Below, piece after piece: positions 246 to 18,526 of a stretch of 25,523 nt of DNA. The notes beneath the pieces were generated by a model, which saw only the letters and a program-made list of their open reading frames with translations, made no database searches and was not told the DNA's origin. How positions within the stretch are numbered: the first letter of the stretch is position 1; every line of letters begins with the position of its first letter. Made by a program: the position numbers and the translations under genes. This stretch comes from Thermodesulfovibrio sp. (GTDB taxonomy: Bacteria > Nitrospirota > Thermodesulfovibrionia > Thermodesulfovibrionales > JdFR-85): the NCBI GenBank assembly GCA_027016675.1, contig JALUSH010000162.1:1-25523 (forward strand), written 5' to 3'.

Positions 246-806
246 TCAAGAATTTGAGTCAGATATTGCCGGATTTGAGGATCTTATGTATCCTGTAAAG
301 TGCCCTCTCATCCTGAGCTTGTAAGGGTCCCTGATGTTAATTACCCGGAAATTCAAAAGATCAATACTTATTAAATATTTACTATTAATAATCTTTTGTA
401 AAAATTCCGATAACCTGCCCATGTCTCCAGTAACGGTTATTTGTACAGGAATTCCTTTGTAGTATTTATAATCTATCTTTTCAAGGGGTCTTAAAGAGGT
501 CATCGTTAACATTGAATCATCTACATAGTTACTGATGAGTTCCTGCATGAAAACCCTTGCCCTGTTTTCCTCCTCCACAGGTAATAGTCCTGTTTCTAAT
601 TTCTTTAATAAGGTTTTGTGTTTTTCAAGAGCTTTTACAATTGTCTCCCTGCTCCTTGCCATCTCTGTGTATTTTTTATACCTTTTGGATTTAACGAATA
701 TGGACTCTCGAATTTCTGCTCTTTTCTGCTCAATGGAGGCAATATAATTAAGAATTATTAACATTGTCAGTCCTGACAATATAATAAAAATATAACCCCT
801 TTTCAT
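246..806 (-). CDS. Type II secretion / type IV pilus inner-membrane platform protein, GspM/PilO-like (186 aa)
   Basis: N-terminal TM helix, then a coiled coil, then a PilO/GspM-like C-terminal pattern (IPVQITVTGDMGRLSEFLQKI...LISIDLLNF). Directly downstream of the GspL/PilN-like gene with a 4-nt overlap. Confidence 0.7.
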   Translation of the reverse strand: MKRGYIFIILSGLTMLIILNYIASIEQKRAEIRESIFVKSKRYKKYTEMARSRETIVKALEKHKTLLKKLETGLLPVEEENRARVFMQELISNYVDDSMLTMTSLRPLEKIDYKYYKGIPVQITVTGDMGRLSEFLQKIINSKYLISIDLLNFRVINIRDPYKLRMRGHFTGYIRSSNPAISDSNS

Positions 807-2056: not shown

Positions 2057-2984
2057 ATTCTCTCCAGTAAAGAGTTACTGTATCAAAACCCTTTGGTGTG
2101 GGTATTCTCTTTATTACAGCCTCTATATTATAGGAAATATTGCTATCCCTTGGTGTTGCCTTTACGGTAATCCTGAAATAGGTTGTTGCCGTTTTTGAAA
2201 ACCCGACACCAGTAAAACGTGGAGGTATTAACCTGTATCCTCCAAGAGTGACTGTCCTCTGGTTCATTGCTCCATCGATCTCTATCTCACTGAGTCCCAA
2301 CAGACTCATCAACTCTCTTGAAACTGTATTGATGTTCAATCCGCCAGTGCCAAATGTCGTTATCATGCTGCTGATACCTTTATGATCTTCATCACCATAA
2401 AGTATGCCTTCACTGAAGCCTTTTACAAGATTAAGCTCTTCAATGGTATCTATACGGTCATTTTTTGTTGAATAACCAAGAGGCTCATAGTATTCATCCT
2501 CTGCACCGTTCAATCTATGGGCATCATCAGGGTCTATCCAGTCCTTCAAGGAATCGATTAATTCATTCTCTTTCTCTCTGTCAACACCGCTGTACTGAAA
2601 GAGCCGCCGCAGAAGACTTTCCGAGGCATAGTTGATATTGATTCTGCTTTCCTCATCTTCCACCTTTACCCTGACCTCTCCATCGGGCAGTTTGATATCT
2701 TCCTGCAAAGGTTCTGATTCTTTATCAAGATAGAACCTTCCCTTTTCGTCTATAAAATCTACAGATACATCTTTATCTGTCATCAGGGCATTCAAGGTCA
2801 TATTATAACCTGCCATGGCAAGATAATTAGCAATGGTCTCTTCCTTGAAGTTCCTGACCATGGCTGTGGAAAGCCTTGTAGACATATTAAATGTCATGGC
2901 TGATATTGTGAGAAGAACCAATACCCACAATACCATTATTAATGCATATCCACTGCCTTTAAGGTATCTATAGAACCCTTTCAT
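2022..2984 (-). CDS. gspK: Type II secretion minor pseudopilin GspK (320 aa)
   Basis: Prepilin-like site G|YALIMVLWVLVLL that lacks Glu+5, as is typical of GspK. Also DEESRININ and the Ca-binding-type DWIDPDD...GAEDEYY segment. Confidence 0.9.
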   Translation of the reverse strand: MKGFYRYLKGSGYALIMVLWVLVLLTISAMTFNMSTRLSTAMVRNFKEETIANYLAMAGYNMTLNALMTDKDVSVDFIDEKGRFYLDKESEPLQEDIKLPDGEVRVKVEDEESRININYASESLLRRLFQYSGVDREKENELIDSLKDWIDPDDAHRLNGAEDEYYEPLGYSTKNDRIDTIEELNLVKGFSEGILYGDEDHKGISSMITTFGTGGLNINTVSRELMSLLGLSEIEIDGAMNQRTVTLGGYRLIPPRFTGVGFSKTATTYFRITVKATPRDSNISYNIEAVIKRIPTPKGFDTVTLYWREYVLYSDTETKS

Positions 2985-2991
2985 CTCTTTA

Positions 2992-4662
2992 CTACAATTC
3001 TACCTGAGTAACCCTGAGAACCTCATCTATAGTGGTAATACCCTGTTTAACCTTTTCCAGGCCATCCTCTCTCAGGGTTCTCATACCCAGTTCGATAGCC
3101 TTCTGTCTCAGTTCTCTTGTGGTTGCCTTTTCCATGATCATCTCACGGATTTCGTCGTTTATGATTAATAATTCAAATATTGCAATCCTCCCAAGATAGC
3201 CAGTGTATGAGCAGTGCTCACATCCCTCTCCCCTGTACAGGGTATTGCTTATGTTAAACTCAAGGGCGATCTCTTTATTTTTAAAATCCTCCACCTTACA
3301 ATGTGTACAGACCCTCCTTACAAGACGCTGGGCCATAACGCCTATCAGGGTAGATGAGACAAGATAATTCTCAACCCCCATGTCCATGAGTCTTGTTATA
3401 GCACCTGGTGCATCATTGGTGTGAAGTGTGCTGAATATCAAATGCCCTGTAAGGGCAGCATGAATAGCAATTCCAGCGGTCTCAAGATCTCTTATCTCCC
3501 CTACCATGATAATATCAGGGTCCTGACGGACAATATGCCTCAGACCATTTGCAAAGGTCAGTCCTATCCTGGGCTGCACATTTATCTGATTTATTCCCTT
3601 CATAACATACTCCACAGGCTCTTCAATGGTGATTATCTTCTTATCAGGGGAGTTAATCCTGTCAAGAGAGGCATAGAGTGTTGTGCTTTTTCCACTCCCT
3701 GTAGGCCCTGTAATCAGAATCATACCATAGGGTCTATGGATTAACTCAATATAATGTTTCAACAGTATCTCATCAAAGCCGATATCTTCCAGGCCGATAA
3801 ATATCGAACCTCTGTCAAGAACCCTCATCACTATGCTTTCACCATGTACAGTGGGAATCGTGGATACCCTTATATCTATCTCCTTACCTGCATATTTACC
3901 CCTGATTCTTCCATCCTGGGGGAGCCTCCTCTCAGCAATGTTCATGGTGGCAAGGAGTTTAATACGGGAGGTCACTGCAGGGGTCATATTTACAGGTATA
4001 ACCTCTTTATCATAAAGAACACCATCGATTCGATACCTTACTCTCAGGATATCCTCTTCTGGCTCGATGTGGATATCACTTGCCCTGTCTCTGACAGCAT
4101 TCTCAATTAAAAGGTTTACTAACTGTATTATTCCCTTTTCCTGTGCAAGTCCTGTAAGGGTGTCAACCTCTACCTTCGACTCCTCGACCGCGATATCCTC
4201 CTGGACATCATCAAGTGCCTTCTTCATCATAGCCTCTCTTGAGGCAAAGAGTCTATTGAGATGTGAGATAATCACGGATTTATGGGTAAGATATGGCTTG
4301 ACATCATAACCAAAAGTAGCCTCGATAGCCTCAAGTGGTTCTATATTGATTGGATCAGCTATTGCTACAGATAGTTGATTACCCTCTATCCTGAGAGGCA
4401 GTATAAGGTTCTCTTTGAGAAACTCCTGTGATAGCCTGTCAAGAGGAAGTTTATCAGGAAGATCATCCTTTGATAATACAGGAATATTAAACTGAATTGA
4501 GAGAGCCTGAATAAGTTCCTCCTCCCTGATGGCCATCTCTGCAAGGATCTCCCCAAGACGTCTCTTATGTGGTTCTTTCTCCTGTAGCTCAAGTGCCCTT
4601 TGAAGTGCTTCTTCTGTTATATACCCCAGGCCGACTAATATTTCCCCTATTCTTTTATGCAT
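2992..4662 (-). CDS. gspE: Type II secretion / type IV pilus assembly ATPase GspE/PilB (556 aa) with N-terminal MshEN motif
   Basis: Walker A GPTGSGKSTT, Walker B IMVGEIRD, His box STLHTNDA, ASDIHIEP and RLPQDGR motifs, and two CxxC Zn pairs (CTHC, CEHC). Confidence 0.93.
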   Translation of the reverse strand: MHKRIGEILVGLGYITEEALQRALELQEKEPHKRRLGEILAEMAIREEELIQALSIQFNIPVLSKDDLPDKLPLDRLSQEFLKENLILPLRIEGNQLSVAIADPINIEPLEAIEATFGYDVKPYLTHKSVIISHLNRLFASREAMMKKALDDVQEDIAVEESKVEVDTLTGLAQEKGIIQLVNLLIENAVRDRASDIHIEPEEDILRVRYRIDGVLYDKEVIPVNMTPAVTSRIKLLATMNIAERRLPQDGRIRGKYAGKEIDIRVSTIPTVHGESIVMRVLDRGSIFIGLEDIGFDEILLKHYIELIHRPYGMILITGPTGSGKSTTLYASLDRINSPDKKIITIEEPVEYVMKGINQINVQPRIGLTFANGLRHIVRQDPDIIMVGEIRDLETAGIAIHAALTGHLIFSTLHTNDAPGAITRLMDMGVENYLVSSTLIGVMAQRLVRRVCTHCKVEDFKNKEIALEFNISNTLYRGEGCEHCSYTGYLGRIAIFELLIINDEIREMIMEKATTRELRQKAIELGMRTLREDGLEKVKQGITTIDEVLRVTQVEL

Positions 4663-4664
4663 TG

Positions 4665-6173
4665 TTACTTTGTTGGTATCCTTGGCACAGTCCCAAAAAG
4701 GTATTTAAAGTCCTCATCCTCGAACGTTATACCACCACCTATAAATAGCCCTCTCCACTTGGAATTCAAGATGTTATCAACTCCCCCACTTATGAATAAT
4801 CCATGATAGATATTATAATCAACTCCTATCTTTAGATGTGGATTCTTGGCTCCTTCCTCATCATTACCAAAGTCCCAGATATCAGCTGAGAGCTTCAGCC
4901 TGTCATCAAGAAAGAACTGGTCTGCACCAACGCCAAAGGTATTCTCTGTAATGCCTATTCTCAGGGCTGTATTGGCAAATCTCTTTGCAAACTGAGCAGT
5001 GAATTCAATCCTTTTCTCTATCTCTTCCTCTTTCTCAACAGTGCTAACACCATTTCTGGTTGTTATGGTCTCAGTGGTGGTCACCCTGCCAATAGGGTCA
5101 CCCACAATGCCAAGTATATAGTACTTATCAGGTTTTGGTTTGAGAGTGAGATAGAAATAGCCCTTACCATCGCCTGGCTTGGATAGATATTCTCCTCTGA
5201 ACGTCAGATAGGTTCTGAACCTTTCAATCTTTGCAATTGTTCGTTCCACGCCCCTGGCTGCATTGTTGACAGAATGATAGAGGCTTTCATCTGTAACAAG
5301 CTTTCCAAGAGTTCCCTCCCCTCTGTTTATCCTTTCAGTGATTGACTTTACATTATCCAGGGTCTCATCTGTTTTCTCCGCAATGCTTAGAAGCCGTGGT
5401 TTACTTTCCTGTATCAGGTCCTTCAACTCTTCTGCCATGCTGTTCAGTCTTTCAATAAGTACAGGTGCTTTTATACTAAATGTCTCTGCTGCTTTTGAGA
5501 TGTTTGTAACTGAGGCTGTAATACCTTTCCTGTTCTCATTAACAAGCTGTTGTAATGATGCTGTAAGGGTTTTTATGCCATCGAGGGTCTCTCTCAACTT
5601 CTGGTCGTTTACAACTATGCTCCTGTTGAGATTCTCTGTAATACGGGAGAGATTCCTTGCTGTTTCCTTCAGGGATGCCCTTGTTTCTTCAGCACCAAAG
5701 ATATCGTTTATGTTTTCTGTCAGTTTTATAATACTATCTGTTACATCAACAAGATTCTTTACCGCCTTTTCAATATCCACAGGTTCCTGAACATACCTGA
5801 TGGTATCCCCCTCTTCAAGTGGAGGCCCTGCTGTACCGGGTTTAATCTCAAGATATTTATCACCAAGTAGACCTGTTGATTTTATCGATGCCACAGCATC
5901 CCTGTATATCTCAATACCAGGGAAGATGCGCAGCTTGACACGAGCAACACTTCCCTTGAGGGTTATACTGTCGATTATGCCTGCATCCACACCTGCAATC
6001 TTGATCCTTGTTCTCTCATCAAGGCCTGCCACATTATGAAAATCAACATAAAGGTAGTAACCACCCTTCCTGAACCACTCTGTACCACTGACTCTGAATG
6101 TCATATAGGTAAGAATCGAAAGTACCAGCAAGGCAAATATGCCGACCTTGGTTTCTGTTGATATCCTTTTCAT
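4665..6173 (-). CDS. mlaD: Long MlaD/MCE-family protein (502 aa): TM, MCE domain, long helical region, beta-strand-rich C-terminus
   Basis: N-terminal VGIF TM anchor, MCE signature (AGL...IKIAGVDAG; ASIKSTGLLGDKYLEIKPG), GEGTLGKLVTDESLY motif. ATGA overlap with mlaF. Confidence 0.88.
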   Translation of the reverse strand: MKRISTETKVGIFALLVLSILTYMTFRVSGTEWFRKGGYYLYVDFHNVAGLDERTRIKIAGVDAGIIDSITLKGSVARVKLRIFPGIEIYRDAVASIKSTGLLGDKYLEIKPGTAGPPLEEGDTIRYVQEPVDIEKAVKNLVDVTDSIIKLTENINDIFGAEETRASLKETARNLSRITENLNRSIVVNDQKLRETLDGIKTLTASLQQLVNENRKGITASVTNISKAAETFSIKAPVLIERLNSMAEELKDLIQESKPRLLSIAEKTDETLDNVKSITERINRGEGTLGKLVTDESLYHSVNNAARGVERTIAKIERFRTYLTFRGEYLSKPGDGKGYFYLTLKPKPDKYYILGIVGDPIGRVTTTETITTRNGVSTVEKEEEIEKRIEFTAQFAKRFANTALRIGITENTFGVGADQFFLDDRLKLSADIWDFGNDEEGAKNPHLKIGVDYNIYHGLFISGGVDNILNSKWRGLFIGGGITFEDEDFKYLFGTVPRIPTK

Positions 6174-6928
6174 ACTGTAACCCCCTCTATCTTGATAGGC
6201 CCTTTGGCACTACCGGTTACAAATTGTCTTACCACTGGGTTGTCAGAATTTCTGATCTCTTCAGGAGTTCCCCTCTGTATAATCCTTCCATCATACAACA
6301 TGGCAATTGTATCAGCTATTTTATAGGCACTGGTCATGTCATGGGTAATGGTTACCGAGGTAACCCTCAGATGTTCCCTCAATCTGATTATCAAATCATT
6401 TATGGCATCAGCCATTATTGGATCAAGTCCTGTGGTAGGTTCATCATAGAGAATAATTTCTGGTTCATGGGCAATAGCCCTTGCAAGGCCTACACGTTTT
6501 TTCATTCCCCCTGATAGTTCTGATGGCATGAGGTCCTCCACATCCTTTAATCCCACTAATCTCAGTTTTTCTATAGCAATCTCCCTGGCCTTTCTGGCTG
6601 GCAGCCTGGTATGTCTTAACAGTGAAAAGGCCACATTTTCCCACACAGGCATTGAATCAAAAAGAGCAGCAGATTGAAAAAGCATACCAAATCTCTTCCT
6701 TATCTCGTAAAGGTCTTTTTCATCAAGTTCTGTAATGTCGACGCCATCAATTAAGACCTTTCCCCTCTCTGGTTTGTAAAGCCCAATAATGTGCTTCATC
6801 AAAACGCTTTTGCCTGAACCACTTCCACCTATGATTACCAGGCTCTCGCCCTTTTCAACCTGCAGATTGACTCCCTTAAGGACATCCTTGTTGTCAAAGG
6901 ATTTAAACAAATCCACGATCTCTATCAT
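6170..6928 (-). CDS. mlaF: ABC transporter ATP-binding protein, MlaF/Mkl family (252 aa from the probable start MIEIV)
   Basis: Walker A GGSGSGKS, GMLFQSAALFDSM, LSGGMKKRVGLARA, YDEPTTGLDP and H-loop TITHD. The ORF-track start at 6955 overlaps pcm; the ATG at 6928 matches the usual family N-terminus. Confidence 0.9.
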   Translation of the reverse strand: MIEIVDLFKSFDNKDVLKGVNLQVEKGESLVIIGGSGSGKSVLMKHIIGLYKPERGKVLIDGVDITELDEKDLYEIRKRFGMLFQSAALFDSMPVWENVAFSLLRHTRLPARKAREIAIEKLRLVGLKDVEDLMPSELSGGMKKRVGLARAIAHEPEIILYDEPTTGLDPIMADAINDLIIRLREHLRVTSVTITHDMTSAYKIADTIAMLYDGRIIQRGTPEEIRNSDNPVVRQFVTGSAKGPIKIEGVTV

Positions 6929-6932
6929 TACA

Positions 6933-7574
6933 CTATTCTTTCCAGCCATACTCACCTATAAGGGGGACAAAAACACAGGGTGTATGATACTCTGTCTTGA
7001 AGCTATGCCCCTTCTTTATAAGTCTGAATAATTGTTGACTGTATTTGCTGCCCACAGGTGCAACAATAATTCCCCCGTCATTAAGCTGTTTCTTTAGAAC
7101 CTCAGGGATCTCGGGTGTGCCAGCAGTTATAAGTATCCTGTCAAAAGGGGCATAATCGGGCAACCCTTTTGTTCCATCTCCAACAAAGACATAAACATTA
7201 TCATAACCAAGGTCTCTCAGTAGAGCCTCTGCCCTTTTTGCAATATCCTCAATCCGCTCAATGGTAAAGACCTCTCTTGCAAGTTCAGCAAGTACAGCCG
7301 CCTGATAACCTGAGCCAGTACCAATCTCGAGTACCCTTTCATCACCATCAAGCTCCAGCAACTCTGTCATTACAGCAACCATATAGGGCTGTGAAATGGT
7401 CTGCCCCTCTCCAATAGGAAGAGCACAATCATCATAAGCCCTGTGTCTGAGTGCTTCACCTACAAATAAATGACGAGGGACCTTTAGCATGGCATCAATT
7501 ACCCTTCTATCAGTGATCCCACGGGGCAGAAGCTGGGTTCTTACCATTTCTCTTCTTAATTCAGAGTAATCCAT
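6933..7574 (-). CDS. pcm: Protein-L-isoaspartate(D-aspartate) O-methyltransferase (213 aa)
   Basis: VPRHLFV, IGEGQTISQPYMVA, SAM motif VLEIGTGSGYQAAVLAEL, APFDRILITA and C-terminal FVPL. Confidence 0.95.
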   Translation of the reverse strand: MDYSELRREMVRTQLLPRGITDRRVIDAMLKVPRHLFVGEALRHRAYDDCALPIGEGQTISQPYMVAVMTELLELDGDERVLEIGTGSGYQAAVLAELAREVFTIERIEDIAKRAEALLRDLGYDNVYVFVGDGTKGLPDYAPFDRILITAGTPEIPEVLKKQLNDGGIIVAPVGSKYSQQLFRLIKKGHSFKTEYHTPCVFVPLIGEYGWKE

Positions 7575-8098
7575 CAGAGTATTTGAGCCCCCAGGACGTC
7601 TTTCATAATTCTCAGTGCTGCCTCATGGTCTTCATCAGACAGACCTGCAACAGCATCTTTCACAACCTCGATATTATAACCTCTCAGAACAGCATCAGAA
7701 GCTGTAAACATTACGCAGATATGTGTCACACATCCTGTAAGTCTCAGTGTATCAATACCAAGTGTCTTTAATGTATTATCAAGTTTTGTTTTGTAAAAAC
7801 CAGAATAGGTGGTCTTTTCAATTATAATGTCATCCTTGGAAGGTTTCAACTCATCCACCACCTGTGCCCCTCCTGTCCCCTTTACTGCATGAACAGGCCA
7901 TCGGAAACGCTGAAACTCACTGTCGTTAGGTTCATGGCTATCACAGACATATATAACTGGTTCACCTTCCTTGTGTGCCCTGTCTATCTCTCTTTTTATA
8001 GCAGGCATAACCTTTCTTGTACTTGGAACCTCAAGAGGCGCACCCTCAAGGACAAAATCATTAAGCATATCAATCACAAGTAATGCCCTTTTACTCAT
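7574..8098 (-). CDS. Isochorismatase-family cysteine hydrolase (nicotinamidase-like, 174 aa)
   Basis: Catalytic triad motifs LLVIDMLNDF (Asp), IIEKTTYSGF (Lys) and TGCVTHICV (Cys); metal-type D-x-H and HAV residues. GGAGG RBS upstream. Confidence 0.88.
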   Translation of the reverse strand: MSKRALLVIDMLNDFVLEGAPLEVPSTRKVMPAIKREIDRAHKEGEPVIYVCDSHEPNDSEFQRFRWPVHAVKGTGGAQVVDELKPSKDDIIIEKTTYSGFYKTKLDNTLKTLGIDTLRLTGCVTHICVMFTASDAVLRGYNIEVVKDAVAGLSDEDHEAALRIMKDVLGAQIL

Positions 8099-8131
8099 AT
8101 CCAGACCTCCTGAGTTTGAAATTATGTTAAA

Positions 8132-8140
8132 ATTATATCA
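8132..8140 (-). promoter_or_regulatory. Extended -10 promoter (TGaTATAAT) for the leftward operon
   Basis: The minus strand reads ctgTGATATAATt about 35 nt upstream of the hydrolase ATG. No clear -35 element. Confidence 0.55.
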
Positions 8141-8343
8141 CAGTTGAATTTAAGAAATCTTTTATTTTTTGGATAGTTTCTTGTAAAATAATTCTTAATC
8201 TGTTCCTTGTTGAAGAGAATTTTTACCCGGTATTTATCATTTTCAGTTGTGTCTGACTGAATCTATTTATCACAGCAGAGAGTAAAAATTTCTTGTTCTC
8301 TTGAGAAAAGCATGGACTGAAAAAAGCTTTACAGGAGGTATAA

Positions 8344-9573
8344 ATGGGATATGTGACAGGTCTAAAATGCAGGGAGTGCGGAAGGCAGTATGAAATAGAG
8401 CCTATTTATGTATGTGAATTCTGTTTTGGACCCCTTGAGGCAGTGTATGACTATCAAAAGATCAAGAAAGCCATCTCAAGAAAGAAGATAGAAAACAGGG
8501 ATGAAAACCTGTGGCGATATAAAGAGCTTCTGCCCATAGATAAGGAGCCCCAGGCAGGGCTATACTCTGGCTTTACCCCCCTTGTCAAGGCTGACAATCT
8601 TGGAAAGGAACTTGGATTGAAAGAACTCTACATCAAGGATGACACTGTGGCTCATCCAACATTTTCCTTTAAGGACCGTGTAGTGGCTGTTGCCCTTACA
8701 AAGGCAAAGGAGTTTGGGTTTGACACTGTTGCCTGTGCCTCCACTGGTAATCTTGCCCATTCTGTTTCAGCCCAGGGTGCAAAGGCTGGTTTCAACAGGT
8801 TCATATTTATTCCAGCAACACTGGAGGAATCAAAGATCACCTCATCTCTGGTTTTCGAGCCTCATCTTATTGCTGTGGACGGTAATTATGATGAGGTAAA
8901 CAGGCTCTGTAGCGAGATAGCAAACAGATACAGATGGGCCTTTGTCAACATAAACATCCGTCCTTATTATGCAGAGGGCTCCAAGACCATAGGCTTTGAA
9001 ATAGCAGAACAGCTTGGCTGGAAGGCACCAGACAATGTAGTGGTACCATGTGCAAGTGGCTCATTGTTGACAAAGATCTGGAAGGCCTTCAAGGAACTGA
9101 AGGAGGTTGGTCTTTTAAGGTCTGCTCATACCAGGGTCTATGCTGCCCAGGCAACAGGATGCAATCCAATTGTAACAGCCATCAAGAACGACACAGATGT
9201 GATCAGACCCATTAAACCTGACACTATTGCCAAAAGCCTTGCCATTGGAAATCCTGCAGACGGATATTATGCCTATGCAGCTGTAAAAGAGTCAGGTGGT
9301 TATGGCGAGGAGGTTACAGACGATGAGATTGTTGAAGGCATGAAATTACTTGCCAGGACCGAAGGTATATTTGCAGAAACAGCAGGTGGTGTTACTGTGG
9401 CGGTGACCAGGAAGCTTGTACAACAGGGCTATATCAGTAAAAACGAGGTTACTGTGATATGTGTAACAGGCAATGGATTAAAAACACGAGAGGCACTTGA
9501 TGGTAAAATGGCCTCACCAATATATATTAAACCCAATATTGATGCCTTTGAAGAGGTACTGAAGAGGATTTAA
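8344..9573 (+). CDS. Threonine synthase-like PLP enzyme (fold type II) with N-terminal Zn ribbon (409 aa); actual reaction uncertain
   Basis: CRECG...CEFC Zn ribbon, PLP lysine in PTFSFKDR, ACASTGNLA, and GIFAETAGG...VTGNGLK. GGAGG RBS upstream. Substrate motifs differ from the canonical thrC downstream. Confidence 0.85.
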   Translation: MGYVTGLKCRECGRQYEIEPIYVCEFCFGPLEAVYDYQKIKKAISRKKIENRDENLWRYKELLPIDKEPQAGLYSGFTPLVKADNLGKELGLKELYIKDDTVAHPTFSFKDRVVAVALTKAKEFGFDTVACASTGNLAHSVSAQGAKAGFNRFIFIPATLEESKITSSLVFEPHLIAVDGNYDEVNRLCSEIANRYRWAFVNINIRPYYAEGSKTIGFEIAEQLGWKAPDNVVVPCASGSLLTKIWKAFKELKEVGLLRSAHTRVYAAQATGCNPIVTAIKNDTDVIRPIKPDTIAKSLAIGNPADGYYAYAAVKESGGYGEEVTDDEIVEGMKLLARTEGIFAETAGGVTVAVTRKLVQQGYISKNEVTVICVTGNGLKTREALDGKMASPIYIKPNIDAFEEVLKRI

Positions 9574-9625
9574 CATATTGAAAATTGAATATTTTTTAAT
9601 TTTCTAATGGAGAAAGGAGGTAACC

Positions 9626-9907
9626 ATGGCTGTAAAGGTAAGAATTCCTACGCCACTTCAGAGACTCACAGAAGGCAAAGAAGAGGTAGAGGGCAAACCT
9701 GGCAAGCTCATAGATCTGATAATGGAACTCGACAAACAGTATCCAGGCCTTGCCGAAAGGGTCTCTGAAAACGGAAAAATCAGACGTTTCGTAAATATCT
9801 ATGTAAACGAGGAAGATGTTCGATTTCTTAATGCTGAGGAGACAGAGATCAAGGACGGCGATGAAGTCTCAATCGTACCTGCTATTGCAGGGGGAAGGGG
9901 GATTTAA
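9626..9907 (+). CDS. MoaD/ThiS/CysO-family ubiquitin-like sulfur carrier (93 aa) with C-terminal extension after GG
   Basis: VKVRIPTPL...RRFVNIYVNEEDVRFL...DGDEVSIVPAIAGG-RGI. AAAGGAGG RBS upstream. Confidence 0.9.
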   Translation: MAVKVRIPTPLQRLTEGKEEVEGKPGKLIDLIMELDKQYPGLAERVSENGKIRRFVNIYVNEEDVRFLNAEETEIKDGDEVSIVPAIAGGRGI

Positions 9908-10143
9908 TGAAACTAAGAGTAAAACTCACTTTCCCACAACACCTTATAAAAGAACCTGTACTCTTTACCATGGCCAAAAAGTATGATGTGATGCCAAACA
10001 TCAGACGTGCCCGTGTAACAGAAACCGTGGGAGAGATGATACTGGAACTGGAAGGCGAGGAGAAGAATCTTGAAGATGGTATTCAATCCCTGAGAGATCA
10101 AGGGGTAGAGGTGGAGTTAGTGGAGGGTGATATAATAGAATAA
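9907..10143 (+). CDS. Standalone NIL-domain protein (78 aa)
   Basis: Pattern LTFPQHLIKEPVLFTMAKKYDVMPNIRRARV...GEMILELEG...GVEVE matches NIL/ACT-like domains. TAATG overlap with the carrier gene. Confidence 0.8.
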   Translation: MKLRVKLTFPQHLIKEPVLFTMAKKYDVMPNIRRARVTETVGEMILELEGEEKNLEDGIQSLRDQGVEVELVEGDIIE

Positions 10144-10168
10144 TTAGAAGAAGGAGGATTACCTGTAT

Positions 10169-11296
10169 ATGAGCCAAAGTGAGTCACAAATGTCCGGTCA
10201 GTCCACTGACCAGGAAGACCGAATGTGCAGAAGATGGAGAGGTATTATAAATGAATATAGAAGTTTCCTGCCAGTAAATATAAACACCCCAGTGATTACC
10301 CTCTTTGAGGGTAACACACCTCTTTTGAATGCAGTCAACTTCAGAAAAGAGCTCGGGTTAGATATCGACCTCTATTTCAAATATGATGGAGCAAATCCAA
10401 CCGGCTCTTTTAAGGACAGAGGAATGACTCTTGCAATCTCAAAGGCAATGGAAGAGGGGGCAAGGGCTGTTATATGCGCATCCACAGGAAACACATCAGC
10501 TTCTGCTGCTGCCTACGCTGCACGGGCTGGAATCAGAGCAATTGTTCTGATCCCGGAGGGTAAGATTGCCCTTGGCAAGCTGGTACAGGCTCTTATACAT
10601 GGTGCAGAGGTGATCCAGATTGAGGGAAACTTCGATCAGGCCCTTAACATTGTGAGGGAGATGGTAAAGAAATATCCCATTACGCTTGTAAATTCTATAA
10701 ATCCCTATCGACTTGAAGGCCAGAAGAGTGCTGCCTTTGAGGTAGCTGATCAGTTAGGTAGGGCACCTGATTTTCATGCACTACCTGTAGGTAATGCCGG
10801 GAATATTACTGCATACTGGAGGGGTTACAAGGAATATTACAAGGCAGGACTTATAGATTCTTTACCAAGGATGCTTGGATTCCAGGCTGCAGGCGCTGCA
10901 CCCATTGTTCAGGGAAGACCTGTGGAAAGACCTGAAACAGTGGCAACTGCAATAAGAATTGGTAATCCTGCAAGCTGGAGGTATGCTATAGAGGCAAAAG
11001 AAGAATCAGGAGGCACTATTGAATCTGTTACTGACGATGAGATACTGAACGCCTACAGATATGTTGCACAGTTAGAAGGTATCTTCTGTGAGCCTGCATC
11101 AGCCGCCTCTGTAGCGGGAGTGTTAAAGCTCCACAGAGAAGGCTATTTCAAAGGTGGTGAGACAGTGGTTTGTACTCTCACAGGACATGGACTCAAAGAC
11201 CCTGACATTGTTTTTTCTGTTGCTGAAACACCCAAAAAGGTTGCCCCCAGGATAGATGCAGTGGAAGAGATTCTTTCTCATGTACTGAATTTCTGA
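10169..11296 (+). CDS. thrC: Threonine synthase (canonical; start could alternatively be 10223)
   Basis: EGNTPL, NPTGSFKDRG (PLP Lys), CASTGNTSASAA, NSINPYRLEGQK, PVGNAGNI, TAIRIGNP and EPASAAS. AGGAGG RBS upstream. Confidence 0.93.
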   Translation: MSQSESQMSGQSTDQEDRMCRRWRGIINEYRSFLPVNINTPVITLFEGNTPLLNAVNFRKELGLDIDLYFKYDGANPTGSFKDRGMTLAISKAMEEGARAVICASTGNTSASAAAYAARAGIRAIVLIPEGKIALGKLVQALIHGAEVIQIEGNFDQALNIVREMVKKYPITLVNSINPYRLEGQKSAAFEVADQLGRAPDFHALPVGNAGNITAYWRGYKEYYKAGLIDSLPRMLGFQAAGAAPIVQGRPVERPETVATAIRIGNPASWRYAIEAKEESGGTIESVTDDEILNAYRYVAQLEGIFCEPASAASVAGVLKLHREGYFKGGETVVCTLTGHGLKDPDIVFSVAETPKKVAPRIDAVEEILSHVLNF

Positions 11297-11332
11297 TCCC
11301 TCTCCATGGATTAGAACAAACAGGTCATTCTC

Positions 11333-11341
11333 TGATATAAT
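11333..11341 (+). promoter_or_regulatory. Extended -10 promoter (TGaTATAAT) upstream of the apgM-like gene and lysC
   Basis: tcTGATATAATaa lies 35 nt upstream of the ATG at 11376, in an AT-rich gap. Confidence 0.5.
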
Positions 11342-11375
11342 AAAAAACTATACCTATACAAAAAGGATTATATTA

Positions 11376-12590
11376 ATGAAATATATCATACTGATAGGCG
11401 ATGGAATGGCTGACAGGCCAATAAAAGAATTAGAGGGAAAGACTCCTCTTCAGGCTGCCTTTACGCCCAATATGGACAGGCTTGCAAAGCAAGGAATTCT
11501 TGGCTCTGTCAGGACAATTCCTGAGGGTTTTCCACCCGGCTCTGACGTTGCAAATCTCAGTATTCTTGGCTATGATCCAAAACAGTTCTACTCAGGCAGG
11601 GCTCCACTGGAGGCAGCAAGCATGGGTATCGAGCTTGAGGAGAATGATGTAGCCTTCAGATGCAACCTTGTTACCCTGAAATATAACAAGACAAAAGACC
11701 GTGCCTTAATGGAAGACTACAGTGCTGGTCACATAAGCACTGAAGAAGCGAGGCAGTTGATAGAAACCATTGATTCTGAGCTGGGTAACGAGAATATCAG
11801 GTTTTTCCCTGGTATCAGTTACAGACACTTAATGATATGGAGGAACGGCGAGGTTGAGATCGAATGTGTTCCTCCCCATGATATCATCGGTAAAGAGATA
11901 ACAGAGTATCTCCCACTGGGCAAGGGTGAAAGGGTAATCCGTTCTCTAATGGAAAGTTCCGTGGGAATACTGGAAAACCACCCTGTCAATAAGAAAAGGG
12001 CTGCAGAGGGCAAGAAGGTCGCCAATAGTATCTGGCTCTGGGGACAGGGGAAAAAACCGAAAATACCCACATTCATGGAAAAGTATGGACTTACAGGCGC
12101 ACTGATCAGTGCAGTGGACCTCACCAGGGGGATTGGCGTCTGTGCAGGATTCGAGATCCTTCAGGTCCCGGGTGTAACAGGATATCTTGATACAAACTAT
12201 ACAGGAAAGGCTGAATATGCCCTGAAGGCACTGATAAAACATGATGTAGTGTACATCCATGTGGAGGCCCCTGATGAGGCAGGACATGAGGGAAACTACA
12301 GGAACAAGATTAAAGCTATCGAAGACTTTGATGCCCTTGTGGTAGGCTCTATTATCAGAGGTGCAAAGGAATTCGATGAATACAGGATACTGCTGCTGCC
12401 AGACCACCCCACACCCATTGAGGTAAGAACTCATACTGATGAACCTGTTCCCTTTGTAATCTTTGATAGCCGCCACAGACAGGACAACGGGGACGTTAGA
12501 TTCGATGAAAACATACTTCAGAGGGCTGAAATAGTAAAGATAGAGGAAGGTCATAAGTTAATGGATTTCTTCCTGAAAAACAGAGAATAA
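11376..12590 (+). CDS. apgM: Cofactor-independent phosphoglycerate mutase, ApgM (archaeal) type; candidate homoserine kinase from context (404 aa)
   Basis: IGDGMAD, GKTPL, catalytic Ser in GSDVANLS, GRAPLEAA, and metal ligands EAPDEAGH and PDH. Lies between thrC and lysC. Confidence 0.85.
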   Translation: MKYIILIGDGMADRPIKELEGKTPLQAAFTPNMDRLAKQGILGSVRTIPEGFPPGSDVANLSILGYDPKQFYSGRAPLEAASMGIELEENDVAFRCNLVTLKYNKTKDRALMEDYSAGHISTEEARQLIETIDSELGNENIRFFPGISYRHLMIWRNGEVEIECVPPHDIIGKEITEYLPLGKGERVIRSLMESSVGILENHPVNKKRAAEGKKVANSIWLWGQGKKPKIPTFMEKYGLTGALISAVDLTRGIGVCAGFEILQVPGVTGYLDTNYTGKAEYALKALIKHDVVYIHVEAPDEAGHEGNYRNKIKAIEDFDALVVGSIIRGAKEFDEYRILLLPDHPTPIEVRTHTDEPVPFVIFDSRHRQDNGDVRFDENILQRAEIVKIEEGHKLMDFFLKNRE

Positions 12591-12655
12591 TTCTATCTTT
12601 AAAAACAGAGGTTCTTGGTTCAGATATCCATAAAGAAGCAGGAGGTTAAACCTGT

Positions 12656-13873
12656 ATGCTCATAGTACAGAAATATGGTGGCACATCTGTAGCAAACATT
12701 GAAAGGATAAAGGCGGTTGCAGAACGGGTGGTCAAAACCGTTAGAGAAGGCAATCAGGTTGTTGTGGTGGTATCTGCCATGGCTGGTGAGACAGACAAAC
12801 TGATTGAACTTGCCCATCAGGTATCTCCATCTCCAGGAGAGAGGGAGATGGACCTACTGCTCTCTTCAGGTGAACGGATAACCTGTGCCCTTACTGCAAT
12901 GGCTATACAGGCCCAGGGAGAAAAGGCTGTTGCTCTGACAGGCAGACAGGTGGGGATTATAACTGATAAGGTTCATACAAAGGCAAAGATCGAGAAGGTT
13001 TCTGCTGACAGGGCTAAGAAGGCCCTTGAAGAAGGTTTTGTGGTGGTTGTTGCTGGATTCCAGGGCATAACAGAAGACACTGAAGAGGTAACAACCCTTG
13101 GAAGAGGAGGTTCTGATCTTACTGCAGTAGCCATAGCCTCGGCACTGGGGGCAGATCTCTGCGAGATTTACACTGATGTGGAGGGCGTATTTACAACAGA
13201 CCCCAATATAGTACCTGAAGCAAGGAAACTGGACAAGATATCATATGAGGAAATGTTAGAGCTTGCAAGTTCGGGTGCCAAGGTATTGCAGACTCGATCT
13301 GTTGAATTTGCAATGAAATACAATGTTCCCCTTGTTGTCAGATCAAGCTTTAATGATAAACCAGGCACCTTTGTAATCAAGGAGGATAAGGACATGGAAA
13401 ATGTTTTGGTTTCTGGAGTTGCGTACGATAAAAACCAGGTAAAGATAACAATCCTTGCTGTGCCTGACAGACCAGGTATTGCCGCATTGTTATTCAAATC
13501 AATCGCTGATGCAAATATTGTGGTTGATATGATTGTCCAGAATGTAAGTAGCGATGGTAAGGCCACTGATATATCCTTTACTGTACCAAGAACAGATTAT
13601 CAGAAGGCAGTAAAAATAACAGAAGATATCGCCCGTGAGCTTGGTGCCAGAGGTGTTACAGTGGATGAAAATATCGCAAAGGTCTCCATTGTAGGGGTAG
13701 GTATGAAAACCCACTCTGGTGTGGCAGCCAAAATGTTTGAAACCCTTGCCAGAGAGGGCATAAATATAATGATGATCAGTACTTCAGAGATCAAGGTCTC
13801 CTGTGTGGTGGATGTGAAATATACAGAACTGGCTGTGCGCGTACTCCACGATGCCTTTGAGCTTGACAAATAA
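12656..13873 (+). CDS. lysC: Aspartate kinase with two ACT domains (405 aa)
   Basis: [35 protein letters not shown] and [17 protein letters not shown] upstream. Confidence 0.95.
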
Positions 13874-14506: not shown

Positions 14507-14608
14507 GTAAAAACCCTTTAAGCTTGAAATCATAAAAAACATTTCATTAGAGCAAATGTAAACTGCCCGTGATTTTTGAGTAATATCAGGATGCCTTTAA
14601 ATAGATCT

Positions 14609-17600
14609 ATGAAAAAAAGAATCTTTTTCTACATAGCTCTTATACTAATCATAGCACTGTTTTCCTCTATAGCCGTATATCTAAGATCAGAACGATTCTC
14701 GACCCAGTTAAAAAACATTTTAATCCCTCAATTAGAGAAGGCAACAGGCGCAGAGGTATATATTGGCAAGGTCTTTCTCAATCCCTTTCCACTATATCTT
14801 GAGCTGCAGGATGTCAAAATAGGGAACAAGAAAGTATCCGGGAGTGTTTTTATAAAAAAAGGCAGGATATTCTTTCTTCCCAGCAGATTGATAGCAAAAC
14901 AACTATATCTTTCCAGAATAGAACTGACAGATCTTGATATAAAAAGCCCCTATGATAATCTCTTGCTTTTTTTTCCAAAAAAGGTACAGGTTAAAAACAG
15001 GGGATTCGAGATCATACCTGTTGAGATTCTCATAAACGGTGGCACTATTGAAATAGCAGCGGATTCAGAAAAATTTGTTCTATCCAATCCTTCTATCAGA
15101 CTCAATCTGAAAAAAGGATTTGTTAACATAAGAGAGCTCCGTTTTCTGTACAGAGGCACTAAAGATGTAAGACTTCCCCTCAAAATGAAAGGTAAGCTCT
15201 TCTTTTTGAGGAATGGAGAGAATATAGAACTGAAAGAGTTAATTGTTAATGATTCCCATTCAAGGGTTGTCTTAAAGGGTCTATACAGAAAAAACAATGT
15301 CAAAGGATTTATAACAGGGCGTTTATCATCTCAGTCACTCTCCCCCTTTCTTGATATTCCTTCAGATCTTATGGCTGAGTTAAACCTTGCTGGTTCCTTC
15401 TCTCTTAAGAATATCCTGCCTGGAAGAAGAATTAAAGAGTATCTCAAAACACTAAACTATAAATTAAAACTAAAGGGCTTCACAGATCTTCAATTCCTCA
15501 TGAATCTTTTAAAAGAAAAGGAACCCCTTTATGGCAGAACATATTTCCAGGGTTTACTGAAGGGTAGTTTCTACTCACCAGAACTATCTTTAACAGCAGA
15601 TATGAAAAAAGGAAGCATCTATGGGATAGACACAGATGAGGTAAGAACAGAGATCAAGTATACACAGGGAATAATGAGTTTCAGGAACTCCATCATCAGA
15701 ACATACAATGGAACTGCAAAGGCTGAGGTGGAGATAGCCCTGCCCCATGTAAGATGGTATTCTATCTCTGTAATGGCAGAAGATCTGGACAGCGCTCCCC
15801 TGCTTAAATTAATAAAATGGGATCCCGGACTCCCCTCTGGTAAGGTCAGAGGTTATCTGTTGTCCACAGGTAAAAGATTCTCACCATCAGGAAGATTTAT
15901 CTTTAAAAGTCTATCCCGGAATGATGGAACCTCTATATTAAATAGCATCAAGCATATAGAGGGAACCTTTCACCTTGCAGGAAACACTCTGAGACTGAAG
16001 GCTCTCGATATTAAAACACTATCAAGCGATGTAACCTCCCAGGGACTTTTAAATCTAAAAACCGGCAATATCAGTTTTAAATTCACTTTAAACACTCAGA
16101 ATATAGGAGACATACTGAAAGTAGAAGGTATTACTGGAAAGGCAAGGATTGATGGTAATGTGACTGGAAAGAGCTCAAATCCTGTAATCAATGGCAGAAT
16201 AAAAGCCACAAGTGTCAACATAGATGGTCTCTCTTCAGGTGACCTTCAGGGCGGGCTTTCCTATAGTAATGGCATAATCAATATACATTCTCTTGTAGGT
16301 GCCATGTACCAGGGACAGTATACCCTTAAGGGGTACATTTATACTGGCTCATCGAAACCCTTTGTTATAAAAAAGACTGACCTTTTGATAAACCTCTCTT
16401 TTTCCTCAATACCTGTAGATTCGCTTGTCAATAGGCTGCCGATCAGGGGGCTCAATGATCTGAAAGGCCATATCAGTGGCAATGCTGTAATTACAGGATC
16501 GATAAAATCCCCTGAGTTCAAGGCAAAACTTCAAAGTATCGATCTTAATTACCATAACATCCCCATTGGAACCTTAAAGGCTAATATAATATTTAAAGAT
16601 CACCATTATTTAGTTGATAATATCTCTATAAAAAAAGGACACTCCTTTATAAAAGGTGCCTTTTCTTATTATGGAAATGGGCAATATGATATCAAGGACA
16701 GCCAGATCATCCTGTCTTCAAAGGATATACCTGTAGGCTTTAACAGGGAAATTATGCTCAGGGGTCGCTTATGGGGAGACAGTAAAAACAATGAGGACAA
16801 AATACAGTTCAAGGGAATTCTCTCAGGTGAAAATACTGATCTGGGCAGAATTGAGATGACTTATGTTAGTGGCATTATAGATATTGGTTCCTTCCTTTTT
16901 AAAAATAATATAAGGATAAGGGGCAGATTATCAACAAACAAAAACGCGGACTGGACGCTAAGTATTGAAGCCAGGGATGGTAGATACGATGAACTTCTCA
17001 GATATTTTGTCAAAAATATACCTGATGACCTTATCTTAAATCTTTCTGCTATGTCAAGGCTTTACGGAAGAGGCCTCAATTTTAATGGAGATATCACCTT
17101 CAAGAAATTCATCTGTAATCTTTATGGCTATAATTTCGTCAATATAGGCGATATACTTCTTTCTATAAAGGAGAATACACTGGCTATCGATTCCTTCAGG
17201 ATGAAGGCTGGCCCTGCTATCTTTAATCTCATGGGAGATATTACAAAATCGGGAAGGATGAATATCACAGCCTATGGAAGCTCTTATCTGACACCTCTAA
17301 AGACACTGCTCTCTGGTATAGAATCAATCAGAGGAGATGTTGACTTCGTACTGGGCCTCACAGGTACCACTGAGTCTCCCATTATCAACGGTGGTATCGT
17401 AATAAATAATACAACTATTGAAATCACTCCCTTTATAGAGAGGATAAGGGGAATTACAGGTTATGCTTATATAGATAACAACAGGATCGTAATCGAATCA
17501 CTCAGCGGAAGATTTGGAGGAGGTGATATTTCACTAATCGGTTCTGTAGATATAGGAAACTGGGAATTCAAAAACTATAATATCGATGTCACCCTGAAGG

Positions 17601-18526
17601 ATGTAACACTGAAACCACTTGATAATGTCTGGTTTTCTGCTGATGGACAAATCACCTTCTCTGAACGTAAAGGCACACCACTGATTGTTGGAGAGCTTGG
17701 CATATCAAAGGCTCGATTTAAAAGGGATATCAACTGGAGGGCCATGATACTGAGCAGACGAATTACTGCAAAAACCCACAAGGCAAAGATGGGCCAGACA
17801 GAACTCAACATAACACTGTCTGGAGATGAAGATATCTTGATCGATAATAATCTGGTCACTGCTCCAGCCAAGATAGATCTACTTATAAGGGGCACCATAT
17901 CAAATCCTGCCATTCTGGGACGGATAGAGCTCTTTGGGGGCAAGTTCTTTTTCAGAAACAACGAGTTCAGAATAGAAAAGGCAAGTGCAGACTTCGTGGA
18001 TCCCCAGGGTATATATCCCTTCTTTGATATTATTGCGTCAACAAGGGTACATGACTATAACATCACTCTGTCTTTAAATGGCTATGTTGATGAGTTTAAC
18101 CTGAGCCTGAACTCCACTCCTTATCTTAATGAGATGGACATCCTTAGTCTTCTCACCCTCGGCAGGGTCACAAAGAACCTGAGGGGACTGGAAGGTGGCA
18201 TAGGGGTGGCTGAGGCAACAGCCTTTCTTACAGGACAGTTACAGAATACCATCGAGGAACGAATCCAGAGCATTACAGGTTTCGACAGAATTGAGGTGGA
18301 ACCATACATTTCAGAGAAAACAGGAGAGATCGGCCCAAGGGTTACAGTTGCAAAGAGACTTCTCTCTGACAGGTTATATGTGACCTATTCAACATCTTTT
18401 GGTTCCGAGGCTGAGCAGTTCCTCAAGCTTGAATTCTCTTTAAGCGATAATATCTCCCTTGTTGGAGAAAGAGATGAAACAGGCACTATTGGTGCTGATA
18501 TTAAGTTCAGAGTGGAGTTCAGATGA
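14609..18526 (+). CDS. tamB: TamB/AsmA-like translocation and assembly module protein with C-terminal DUF490 (about 1305 aa; start may be 14576, 14591 or 14609)
   Basis: N-terminal TM anchor (KKRIFFYIALILIIALF), long beta-taco-type repeats (GSIKSPEFKA, GTTESPIING, GTISNPAILG), DUF490-like C-terminus ending KFRVEFR. ATGA overlap with the Omp85 gene. Confidence 0.88.
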   Translation: MKKRIFFYIALILIIALFSSIAVYLRSERFSTQLKNILIPQLEKATGAEVYIGKVFLNPFPLYLELQDVKIGNKKVSGSVFIKKGRIFFLPSRLIAKQLYLSRIELTDLDIKSPYDNLLLFFPKKVQVKNRGFEIIPVEILINGGTIEIAADSEKFVLSNPSIRLNLKKGFVNIRELRFLYRGTKDVRLPLKMKGKLFFLRNGENIELKELIVNDSHSRVVLKGLYRKNNVKGFITGRLSSQSLSPFLDIPSDLMAELNLAGSFSLKNILPGRRIKEYLKTLNYKLKLKGFTDLQFLMNLLKEKEPLYGRTYFQGLLKGSFYSPELSLTADMKKGSIYGIDTDEVRTEIKYTQGIMSFRNSIIRTYNGTAKAEVEIALPHVRWYSISVMAEDLDSAPLLKLIKWDPGLPSGKVRGYLLSTGKRFSPSGRFIFKSLSRNDGTSILNSIKHIEGTFHLAGNTLRLKALDIKTLSSDVTSQGLLNLKTGNISFKFTLNTQNIGDILKVEGITGKARIDGNVTGKSSNPVINGRIKATSVNIDGLSSGDLQGGLSYSNGIINIHSLVGAMYQGQYTLKGYIYTGSSKPFVIKKTDLLINLSFSSIPVDSLVNRLPIRGLNDLKGHISGNAVITGSIKSPEFKAKLQSIDLNYHNIPIGTLKANIIFKDHHYLVDNISIKKGHSFIKGAFSYYGNGQYDIKDSQIILSSKDIPVGFNREIMLRGRLWGDSKNNEDKIQFKGILSGENTDLGRIEMTYVSGIIDIGSFLFKNNIRIRGRLSTNKNADWTLSIEARDGRYDELLRYFVKNIPDDLILNLSAMSRLYGRGLNFNGDITFKKFICNLYGYNFVNIGDILLSIKENTLAIDSFRMKAGPAIFNLMGDITKSGRMNITAYGSSYLTPLKTLLSGIESIRGDVDFVLGLTGTTESPIINGGIVINNTTIEITPFIERIRGITGYAYIDNNRIVIESLSGRFGGGDISLIGSVDIGNWEFKNYNIDVTLKDVTLKPLDNVWFSADGQITFSERKGTPLIVGELGISKARFKRDINWRAMILSRRITAKTHKAKMGQTELNITLSGDEDILIDNNLVTAPAKIDLLIRGTISNPAILGRIELFGGKFFFRNNEFRIEKASADFVDPQGIYPFFDIIASTRVHDYNITLSLNGYVDEFNLSLNSTPYLNEMDILSLLTLGRVTKNLRGLEGGIGVAEATAFLTGQLQNTIEERIQSITGFDRIEVEPYISEKTGEIGPRVTVAKRLLSDRLYVTYSTSFGSEAEQFLKLEFSLSDNISLVGERDETGTIGADIKFRVEFR

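Follow-up and report, generated by a model that had tools for sequence, protein, structure and literature searches.

A MetM/MetO-type homocysteine synthase system probably heads a threonine operon in Thermodesulfovibrio sp., with a NIL-domain protein as a candidate third component

In a stretch of 25,523 nucleotides from Thermodesulfovibrio sp. (contig JALUSH010000162.1, called here, in its full length, the window), the first three genes of a six-gene block (positions 8344-13873, + strand) very probably form a homocysteine synthase system of the MetM/MetO type at the head of a threonine operon. They encode, in this order, a divergent paralogue of the threonine synthase ThrC, a ubiquitin-like sulfur carrier and a NIL-domain protein, and they are followed by canonical thrC, an ApgM-like gene and an aspartate kinase gene. 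This arrangement had been described in an initial annotation of the DNA; the six same-direction open reading frames (ORFs) were found where that annotation had placed them, and the composition was confirmed with Pfam and NCBIfam models.

The chemistry of the enzyme-carrier pair is already published. In Streptomyces albulus, as GapMind 2026 (PMC13759103) summarizes the work of Hasebe et al. (Appl Environ Microbiol 90:e0124724, 2024), the proteins MetM, MetO, Mec and MoeZ turn O-phosphohomoserine into homocysteine; MetO is the carrier, Mec a JAMM hydrolase, MoeZ an E1 and MetM the enzyme. New in the locus described here are the NIL partner, a rhodanese-less E1 accompanied by TusA, and the placement in a threonine operon free of riboswitches. 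The initial statement that the trio had no biochemical characterization still holds for the NIL protein and is outdated for the enzyme-carrier pair (MetM/MetO, 2024).

The ThrC-like enzyme

The first gene (8344..9573, + strand) encodes a fold-type II pyridoxal phosphate (PLP) enzyme of 409 amino acids (P0001), which is matched by the PALP family (7.5e-69) and by ThrC models and carries an N-terminal zinc ribbon of four cysteines (CxxC...CxxC). Its Schiff-base lysine, K110, lies in an SFKDR motif and is invariant in 42 representatives of the family. In the alignment it corresponds to K82 of the canonical ThrC of the same block (P0004; 10169..11296, + strand; TIGR00260, 336 bits) and to K61 of the Thermus thermophilus enzyme. 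The two paralogues of the window are 41% identical. P0004 aligns without gaps to T. thermophilus ThrC (PDB 1UIM; E 1.8e-145), and its residues K82, T109, N175, S176, R181 and N209 correspond to K61, T88, N154, S155, R160 and N188 of that protein, all of them conserved.

The two paralogues differ at T88, S155, R160 and N188 (T. thermophilus numbering), the residues that hold the phosphate in threonine synthase. The phosphate held there steers the addition of water ('product-assisted catalysis'). P0004 keeps the four of them, while P0001 has L137, N204, Y209 and S238 at the same positions. L137, N204 and Y209 are invariant across 83 MetM-like sequences, and the MetM group has a new invariant arginine, R206, two residues earlier. 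The replaced site fits an enzyme that would still bind a phospho-substrate and would no longer make threonine.

The relationships within the family are in agreement with this picture. In a tree of 90 sequences built with a quick search, the 83 MetM-like sequences, P0001 included, were split from seven canonical ThrCs with 100% support in the SH-like approximate likelihood ratio test (SH-aLRT), and the cyanobacterial and actinobacterial homologues shared a well-supported clade with P0001. The nearest named proteins belong to the Thermodesulfovibrionales (Nitrospirota), among them one of Dissulfurispira thermophila with 79% identity. In the two homologue lists obtained, all source proteins with a name bear the label 'threonine synthase', and GapMind 2026 (PMC13759103), which includes the MetM route, describes MetM as a ThrC homologue 'often misannotated as such'.

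From homology to the published Streptomyces system, we infer that P0001 makes homocysteine from O-phosphohomoserine. The proposal of the initial annotation, in which the thiocarboxylate of the carrier replaces the phosphate of O-phosphohomoserine, matches exactly the MetM/MetO route as GapMind 2026 presents it.

The second paralogue is a constant feature of the genomes searched in the order. The order-wide searches covered 21 genomes of Thermodesulfovibrionales (the one holding the window and 20 relatives), of which 19 are at least 90% complete. Both ThrC paralogues were found in 21 of the 21; in most genomes they are neighbors, separated by about the length of carrier and NIL together. The arrangement is not due to chance.

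The sulfur carrier and its activation partners

The second gene (9626..9907, + strand) encodes a ubiquitin-like carrier of 93 amino acids of the MetO/CysO type (P0002; ThiS family, 6.4e-18), one of four ThiS-family genes of its genome. Its C-terminus reads ...VSIVPAIAGG-RGI, that is, a diglycine followed by a tail of three residues. A carrier end of the PA[IV]AGG type is common to 69 loci, and the tail after the diglycine varies within the order (K, GRE, RGI, SC or AFIM); among the 75 carrier genes listed near MetM over all loci, 42 end at GG with no tail. In the window (9893-9909), the tail codons AGG GGG ATT double as the Shine-Dalgarno sequence of the NIL gene, the ATG of which overlaps the carrier stop codon (TAATG), an arrangement of translational coupling. 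This double use of the tail codons may explain why the tail varies freely in the order.

The genome that holds the window also contains an E1 gene and a JAMM peptidase gene, neither of them linked to the window, as the initial annotation had anticipated. The E1 gene lies on contig C63 in the row aminotransferase-hom-tusA-E1, with tusA overlapping the start of the E1 gene. The JAMM gene (JAB) lies on contig C124 behind asd, with a 4-bp overlap, and its product shows a complete JAMM motif (HSHPE...S..D). The two proteins are, respectively, 80% and 58% identical to their D. thermophila counterparts. The E1 protein has 271 amino acids and covers only positions 14-273 of the 392-position MoeZ model, so that the C-terminal rhodanese domain of MoeZ is missing from it. 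Because tusA overlaps the start of this rhodanese-less E1 gene, a TusA persulfide is suggested as the sulfur donor.

Another organization of these components was met at L033:7235-8302, where a natural fusion of 355 amino acids joins a carrier domain, through an internal GG, to a ThiF-type E1, beside MetM and NIL.

Orthologous loci and SAM riboswitches

A scan of species-representative genomes, seeded with a 12-sequence alignment because the alignment of the 42 representatives was too diverse, yielded 80 loci from about 15 phyla, with proteins 55-92% identical to P0001. Carrier and NIL were called in them with clean single-domain hidden Markov models (HMMs), an iterated carrier HMM having absorbed NIL through fusions. 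The joint occurrence of the ThrC-like enzyme with carrier and NIL, which had been put forward for profiling, proved strong across phyla: 69 of the 80 loci have a carrier gene at most 4 kb away from the MetM-like gene, and a NIL gene is present within the same distance in 44, which belong to at least 12 phylum-level groups.

The regulatory context of the orthologues was also informative. Among 25 loci tested by Rfam, 15 had an S-adenosylmethionine (SAM) riboswitch of class SAM-I (RF00162; 68-92 bits, gathering score 44) located 70-420 nt ahead of the MetM-like gene and on its strand, and one more gave a borderline SAM-alpha match. Members with a riboswitch occur dispersed over the whole clade to which P0001 belongs. 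Control by SAM fits the synthesis of methionine, not that of threonine.

The closest cultured relative is D. thermophila T55J (AP022873.1), whose MetM-type protein shows 100% identity to the named protein P0050. In this genome the genes lie in a single row: aminotransferase-hom-tusA-thiF-type E1-JAB-metM-carrier-NIL-thrC-homK-three small ORFs-ask, with ask about 1 kb beyond homK. According to GapMind 2026 (PMC13759103), this organism is a prototroph grown in defined medium; the MetM/MetO route is assigned to it there, and a diverged Mec is listed for it.

At loci of other phyla (L039, L041, L042, L045, L046 and L057) MetM and carrier, with or without NIL, are accompanied by a CysM-like PLP enzyme of 300-350 amino acids, a neighbor also seen at Nitrospira-type loci (L049, L052, L053, L061, L066 and L106). 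The loci bearing it also have a JAB gene, a ThiF E1 gene in one or two copies and, in some cases, TusA. Cysteine and homocysteine synthesis may there be served by one and the same carrier.

Supply of O-phosphohomoserine and missing standard routes

The initial annotation had placed the threonine/methionine branch point at O-phosphohomoserine, with a bypass of acylation by MetA or MetX. The genomes are in agreement with it: none of the 21 genomes of the order yielded MetA (PF04204), MetX (TIGR01392) or DUF39/HcyBio (PF01837) in searches in which the control genomes matched as expected. No enzyme of the Cys_Met_Meta_PP family (MetB/C/Y/Z) was found in the genome that holds the window or in 16 of its 20 relatives, true members occurring in just four of the 21. 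The suspected lack of metA, metX, metB and metY was thus borne out in the genome of the window and, for the MetB/C/Y/Z type, in most of its relatives. Ordinary cysteine synthase (CysK/M) is present twice in the genome of the window.

Concerning the supply of the substrate, the fifth gene of the block (11376..12590, + strand) encodes HomK (ThrB2), an ApgM-like homoserine kinase or phosphotransferase, with 580 bits against a cut-off of 446 for TIGR02535 ('proposed homoserine kinase'); the phosphoglycerate mutase model NF003242 is also passed. The HomK family complements thrB of Escherichia coli (GapMind 2026, PMC13759103). In five genomes of the order nothing scored above the cut-off for ThrB, which leaves HomK as the likely source of O-phosphohomoserine. 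The sixth gene (12656..13873, + strand) encodes a monofunctional aspartate kinase with an AA_kinase domain and two ACT domains (NF005155, 621 bits).

Taken together with the published chemistry, these data allow a route to be proposed. Aspartate kinase and HomK from the window, with Asd (C124) and homoserine dehydrogenase (C63), would lead to O-phosphohomoserine, from which canonical ThrC would make threonine. At this branch point MetM would eliminate the phosphate and form homocysteine by adding at C-gamma the sulfur that the carrier bears as a C-terminal thiocarboxylate. For that, the JAMM peptidase encoded next to asd would trim the carrier from GG-RGI to GG, and the MoeB/ThiF-type E1 without rhodanese, whose gene follows hom and tusA, would adenylate the trimmed carrier, the sulfur coming probably from a TusA persulfide or from sulfide. 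The NIL protein, produced about 1:1 with the carrier, would most likely act as a detachable regulatory subunit binding methionine (or homocysteine) and giving feedback at the protein level; such feedback would matter because the operon also contains threonine genes and has no SAM riboswitch.

Two further ThrC-family genes were met in the order. In one relative lacking MetA and MetX (G013:C2:3298-5797), an extra ThrC-like gene, 27% identical to P0001 at the protein level, lies directly upstream of a true Cys_Met_Meta_PP gene, and the pair may represent another route based on O-phosphohomoserine. In the genome of the window, a third ThrC-family gene on contig C202 (L003:353-2724, - strand) encodes a cysteate synthase (TIGR03844, 485 bits, cut-off 325), and the gene right after it a sulfopyruvate decarboxylase with alpha and beta parts fused. 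Both enzymes catalyze steps of coenzyme M synthesis of the methanogen type, met here in a bacterium of the Thermodesulfovibrionales.

The NIL protein

The third gene (9907..10143, + strand) encodes a stand-alone NIL domain of 78 amino acids (P0003; PF09383, 3.2e-18, 65.8 bits against a cut-off of 24), the kind of domain that binds methionine in the ABC (ATP-binding cassette) transporter ATPase MetN. Five genomes of the order were searched for NIL domains, and each yielded only this one. The methionine-binding motif is kept: N31-I-R33-x-A35 of P0003 aligns with N295-I-I-S-A299 of the E. coli MetN C2 domain, and, among 47 NIL sequences, N31 is present in 89%, R33 in 98% and A35 in 100%. In MetN, the mutation N295A brought L-methionine binding down to undetectable levels (PMC6233128). 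At four loci (L054, L067, L072 and L101) the NIL gene lies downstream of MetM behind a SAM riboswitch. P0003 contains no cysteine, which rules out that it is a 'ferredoxin', the name it bears in some records, or a persulfide relay.

In seven loci NIL is fused to the carrier, in the form carrier(1-91)-GG-NIL(94-171), with 2-3 residues between the diglycine and NIL, and all seven fetched loci also contain a JAMM gene. Since the GG is internal in these proteins, the JAMM peptidase must release both parts. An AlphaFold model of a natural fusion had a mean predicted local distance difference test (pLDDT) value of 92, with both domains confident. Its carrier half superimposed on M. tuberculosis CysO (3DWG_C) with a template modelling (TM) score of 0.91 and 52% identity, and its NIL half on MetN C2 with root-mean-square deviations of 0.9-1.4 A over 73-78 residues, including the crystal soaked with selenomethionine. 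PDB 1V8C, a 'MoaD related protein' of 168 amino acids from T. thermophilus, aligns with the carrier-NIL fusion (E 1.4e-10) over its internal ...PPVAGG-GFE and on into the beginning of its second domain, and may be an already solved carrier with a C-terminal extension domain.

A full-text search of the literature for NIL together with sulfur carriers or homocysteine returned only work on DUF39 and NIL-ferredoxin, and NIL is, as far as the literature searched goes, an undescribed companion of MetM/MetO systems. The role of a putative detachable amino-acid sensor acting in feedback at the protein level has a chance that we place near, though rather below, even. Somewhat more tentative is the full proposal, in which NIL would be a third component of MetM/MetO systems, produced about 1:1 with the carrier, released by JAMM from the fusions of some lineages, and able to bind methionine or homocysteine and to shut off homocysteine synthesis. 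It would then be the main methionine feedback in this lineage, because the operon is shared with threonine genes and has no SAM riboswitch.

Three observations do not favor a general role of NIL. It is missing near MetM in 36 of the 80 loci, including all six from cyanobacteria; the published in vitro system is described without it; and the fusion model, with a predicted TM score (pTM) of 0.54, gives no fixed orientation between the domains and so no interface information.

The competing interpretation of NIL is that of a structural pro-domain or chaperone capping the carrier diglycine until JAMM cleavage, or that of a docking subunit for MetM. The seven fusions, with so few residues after the GG and JAMM at every locus, speak for it, as do the translational coupling of both genes in the window and the degree of conservation of NIL, which among the Nitrospirota (82-99% identity) is higher than that of MetM. 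On the other side, the MetN motif and its methionine-binding asparagine are retained, roughly every second carrier stops exactly at GG and has no NIL attached, the loci devoid of NIL are numerous, and no confident packing between the domains appears in the model. We consider this interpretation unlikely, although not negligibly so, and both kinds of role, sensor and pro-domain or docking, could coexist.

Weighing of the homocysteine synthase assignment

Several observations weigh against the assignment of the first three genes to a MetM/MetO system. P0001 passes the NCBIfam cut-offs for threonine synthase, clearly that of TIGR00260 (290 vs 167) and narrowly that of NF006050 (306 vs 303); these models do not separate MetM from ThrC, and the test is non-discriminating. 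A cyanobacterial homologue from Microcystis, reported to be 51.6% identical to MetM, reportedly displayed threonine synthase and threonine deaminase activities in vitro and caused no rise of methionine in vivo. The orthology of P0001 to S. albulus MetM (A0A059WBP2) would follow from a chain formed by the GapMind treatment of D. thermophila and the cyanobacterial homologues at 51.6%; when an actinobacterial locus was used as query, the homologues retrieved were unnamed proteins or proteins from metagenome-assembled genomes, with no named one from Streptomyces among them. The assembly is 75% complete in 263 contigs, and its E1 lacks the rhodanese domain, as said above. Rfam found nothing at the gathering score in the whole window, and a permissive riboswitch scan of positions 7900-8500 gave noise only; the SAM riboswitch is a property of the family, not of the copy in the window. 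Finally, neither MetE (PF01717) nor the homocysteine-binding domain of MetH (PF02574) was found even at E <= 1 in five genomes (G000, G002, G009, G018 and G019), including the closed genome of the prototroph D. thermophila (G018). As PF01717 misses MesC in the control, a MesB/MesC-like methionine synthase is possible in these genomes, and the last step to methionine probably runs via a core synthase missed by the MetE/MetH profiles.

Part of these data would be accommodated if P0001 were an additional threonine synthase or, by moonlighting, a threonine deaminase, with carrier and NIL as unrelated neighbors: the model scores and the reported activities of the cyanobacterial group member speak for it. 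Nevertheless, a canonical ThrC with all known active-site residues is encoded 600 nt downstream, none of the 83 clade members keeps the residues that hold the phosphate, the SAM riboswitches ahead of 15 of 25 orthologues make no sense for threonine, the carrier is adjacent in most loci across phyla, and the genome would otherwise be left with no route to homocysteine. This makes such a threonine synthase very improbable.

Somewhat less probable still is that the trio makes cysteine from O-phosphoserine, in the manner of CysM/CysO, or another thio-amino acid. The carrier is indeed of the CysO type, with an orthologue 52% identical to M. tuberculosis CysO, and in many other phyla the cluster includes the CysM-like enzyme mentioned above; however, this enzyme has, where present, its own gene next to that of MetM, which means that MetM itself is not the cysteine synthase, and the genome of the window has its two ordinary CysK/M genes. 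The riboswitch control of the orthologues and the linkage to hom, homK and thrC, which make or use O-phosphohomoserine, also argue for homocysteine as the product. A chance adjacency of a carrier for molybdenum cofactor or thiamine is ruled out by the linkage across phyla and by the three other ThiS-family genes of the genome.

Comparison with known systems

The homocysteine synthase assignment is best appreciated by comparison with S. albulus MetM/MetO. Both have a ThrC-homologous PLP enzyme, labeled as threonine synthase in databases, beside a carrier ending in GG, with JAMM and ThiF-type E1 genes in the genome, a branch point at O-phosphohomoserine and no MetA or MetX; actinobacterial orthologues and many others lie behind SAM riboswitches, which is also reported for S. 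albulus. In contrast to S. albulus, the window has a stand-alone NIL gene in third place and a thrC-homK-ask operon with no SAM riboswitch; in its genome a rhodanese-less E1 goes together with TusA, the JAMM gene and asd are transcribed together, and the carrier has a tail of three residues to trim.

The CysM/CysO/Mec/MoeZ system of Mycobacterium tuberculosis (PDB 3DWG) is similar in that its fold-type II PLP enzyme acts on a phospho-amino acid together with the thiocarboxylate of a carrier, with a carrier of the CysO type and a JAMM protease. It differs in that the enzyme considered here is of the ThrC family, not of the CysM family, and would use O-phosphohomoserine and produce homocysteine. 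With the C2 domain of MetN (PDB 3DHW, 3DHX, 3TUI and 3TUZ), P0003 shares the Pfam family, the fold and the conserved Asn N295; unlike in MetN, NIL occurs here outside an ABC ATPase, as a free protein of 78 amino acids or as an extension of the carrier.

The initial annotation had also drawn links to HcyS/MetY of Wolinella and to MA1821/MA1822 of methanogens, which reduce to analogies. In Wolinella (HcyS/HcyD/HcyF/MetY) a JAMM-trimmed ThiS-like carrier with a C-terminal extension also delivers the sulfur of homocysteine, but that system uses MetY, a Cys_Met_Meta_PP enzyme, with O-acetylhomoserine. In methanogens and Desulfovibrio, DUF39 (MA1821) and a NIL-ferredoxin (MA1822) also tie the NIL domain to homocysteine synthesis, but the substrate of MA1821 is aspartate semialdehyde, and P0003 has no ferredoxin domain. 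Both types of system were rejected for the genomes considered here, since the enzymes that define them, MetY and MetX on one side and DUF39 on the other, were not found.

Layout of the block and its neighborhood

The six genes are separated by gaps of 52, -1, 25, 79 and 65 nt, a Shine-Dalgarno sequence precedes each of them, and no terminator-like site was predicted on the + strand inside 8344-13873. The region ahead of the block (8099..8343, + strand) would hold the promoter and leader of the operon and contains no riboswitch according to the Rfam scans; AGGAGG lies in it 7 nt ahead of the ATG of P0001.

The flanks of the window are unrelated to the block. On the - strand, positions 246-8098 contain pilus or type II secretion system (T2SS)-like genes (PilO/PilN/T2SSK/T2SSE), an MlaD-MlaF-like ABC pair, a protein-L-isoaspartate methyltransferase and an isochorismatase-family hydrolase. 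On the + strand, positions 14576-21282 contain genes for a TamB-like protein of 1316 amino acids and an Omp85/POTRA protein of 919 amino acids.

Implications

The results correct the widespread misannotation of MetM-like proteins as 'threonine synthase' and, with a MetM/MetO system in place, the homocysteine gap would be closed in the Thermodesulfovibrionales and in many other phyla. The published core chemistry is left unchanged by what has been found about NIL and the locus. With its NIL partner, the system can serve to test the idea of a portable methionine sensor on a ubiquitin-like sulfur carrier, and the natural carrier-GG-NIL fusions would be, if this is true, a bacterial case of precursor processing at a diglycine, like that of ubiquitin fusions. 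For the metabolism of these bacteria, O-phosphohomoserine would be the branch point between threonine and methionine, as it is in plants.

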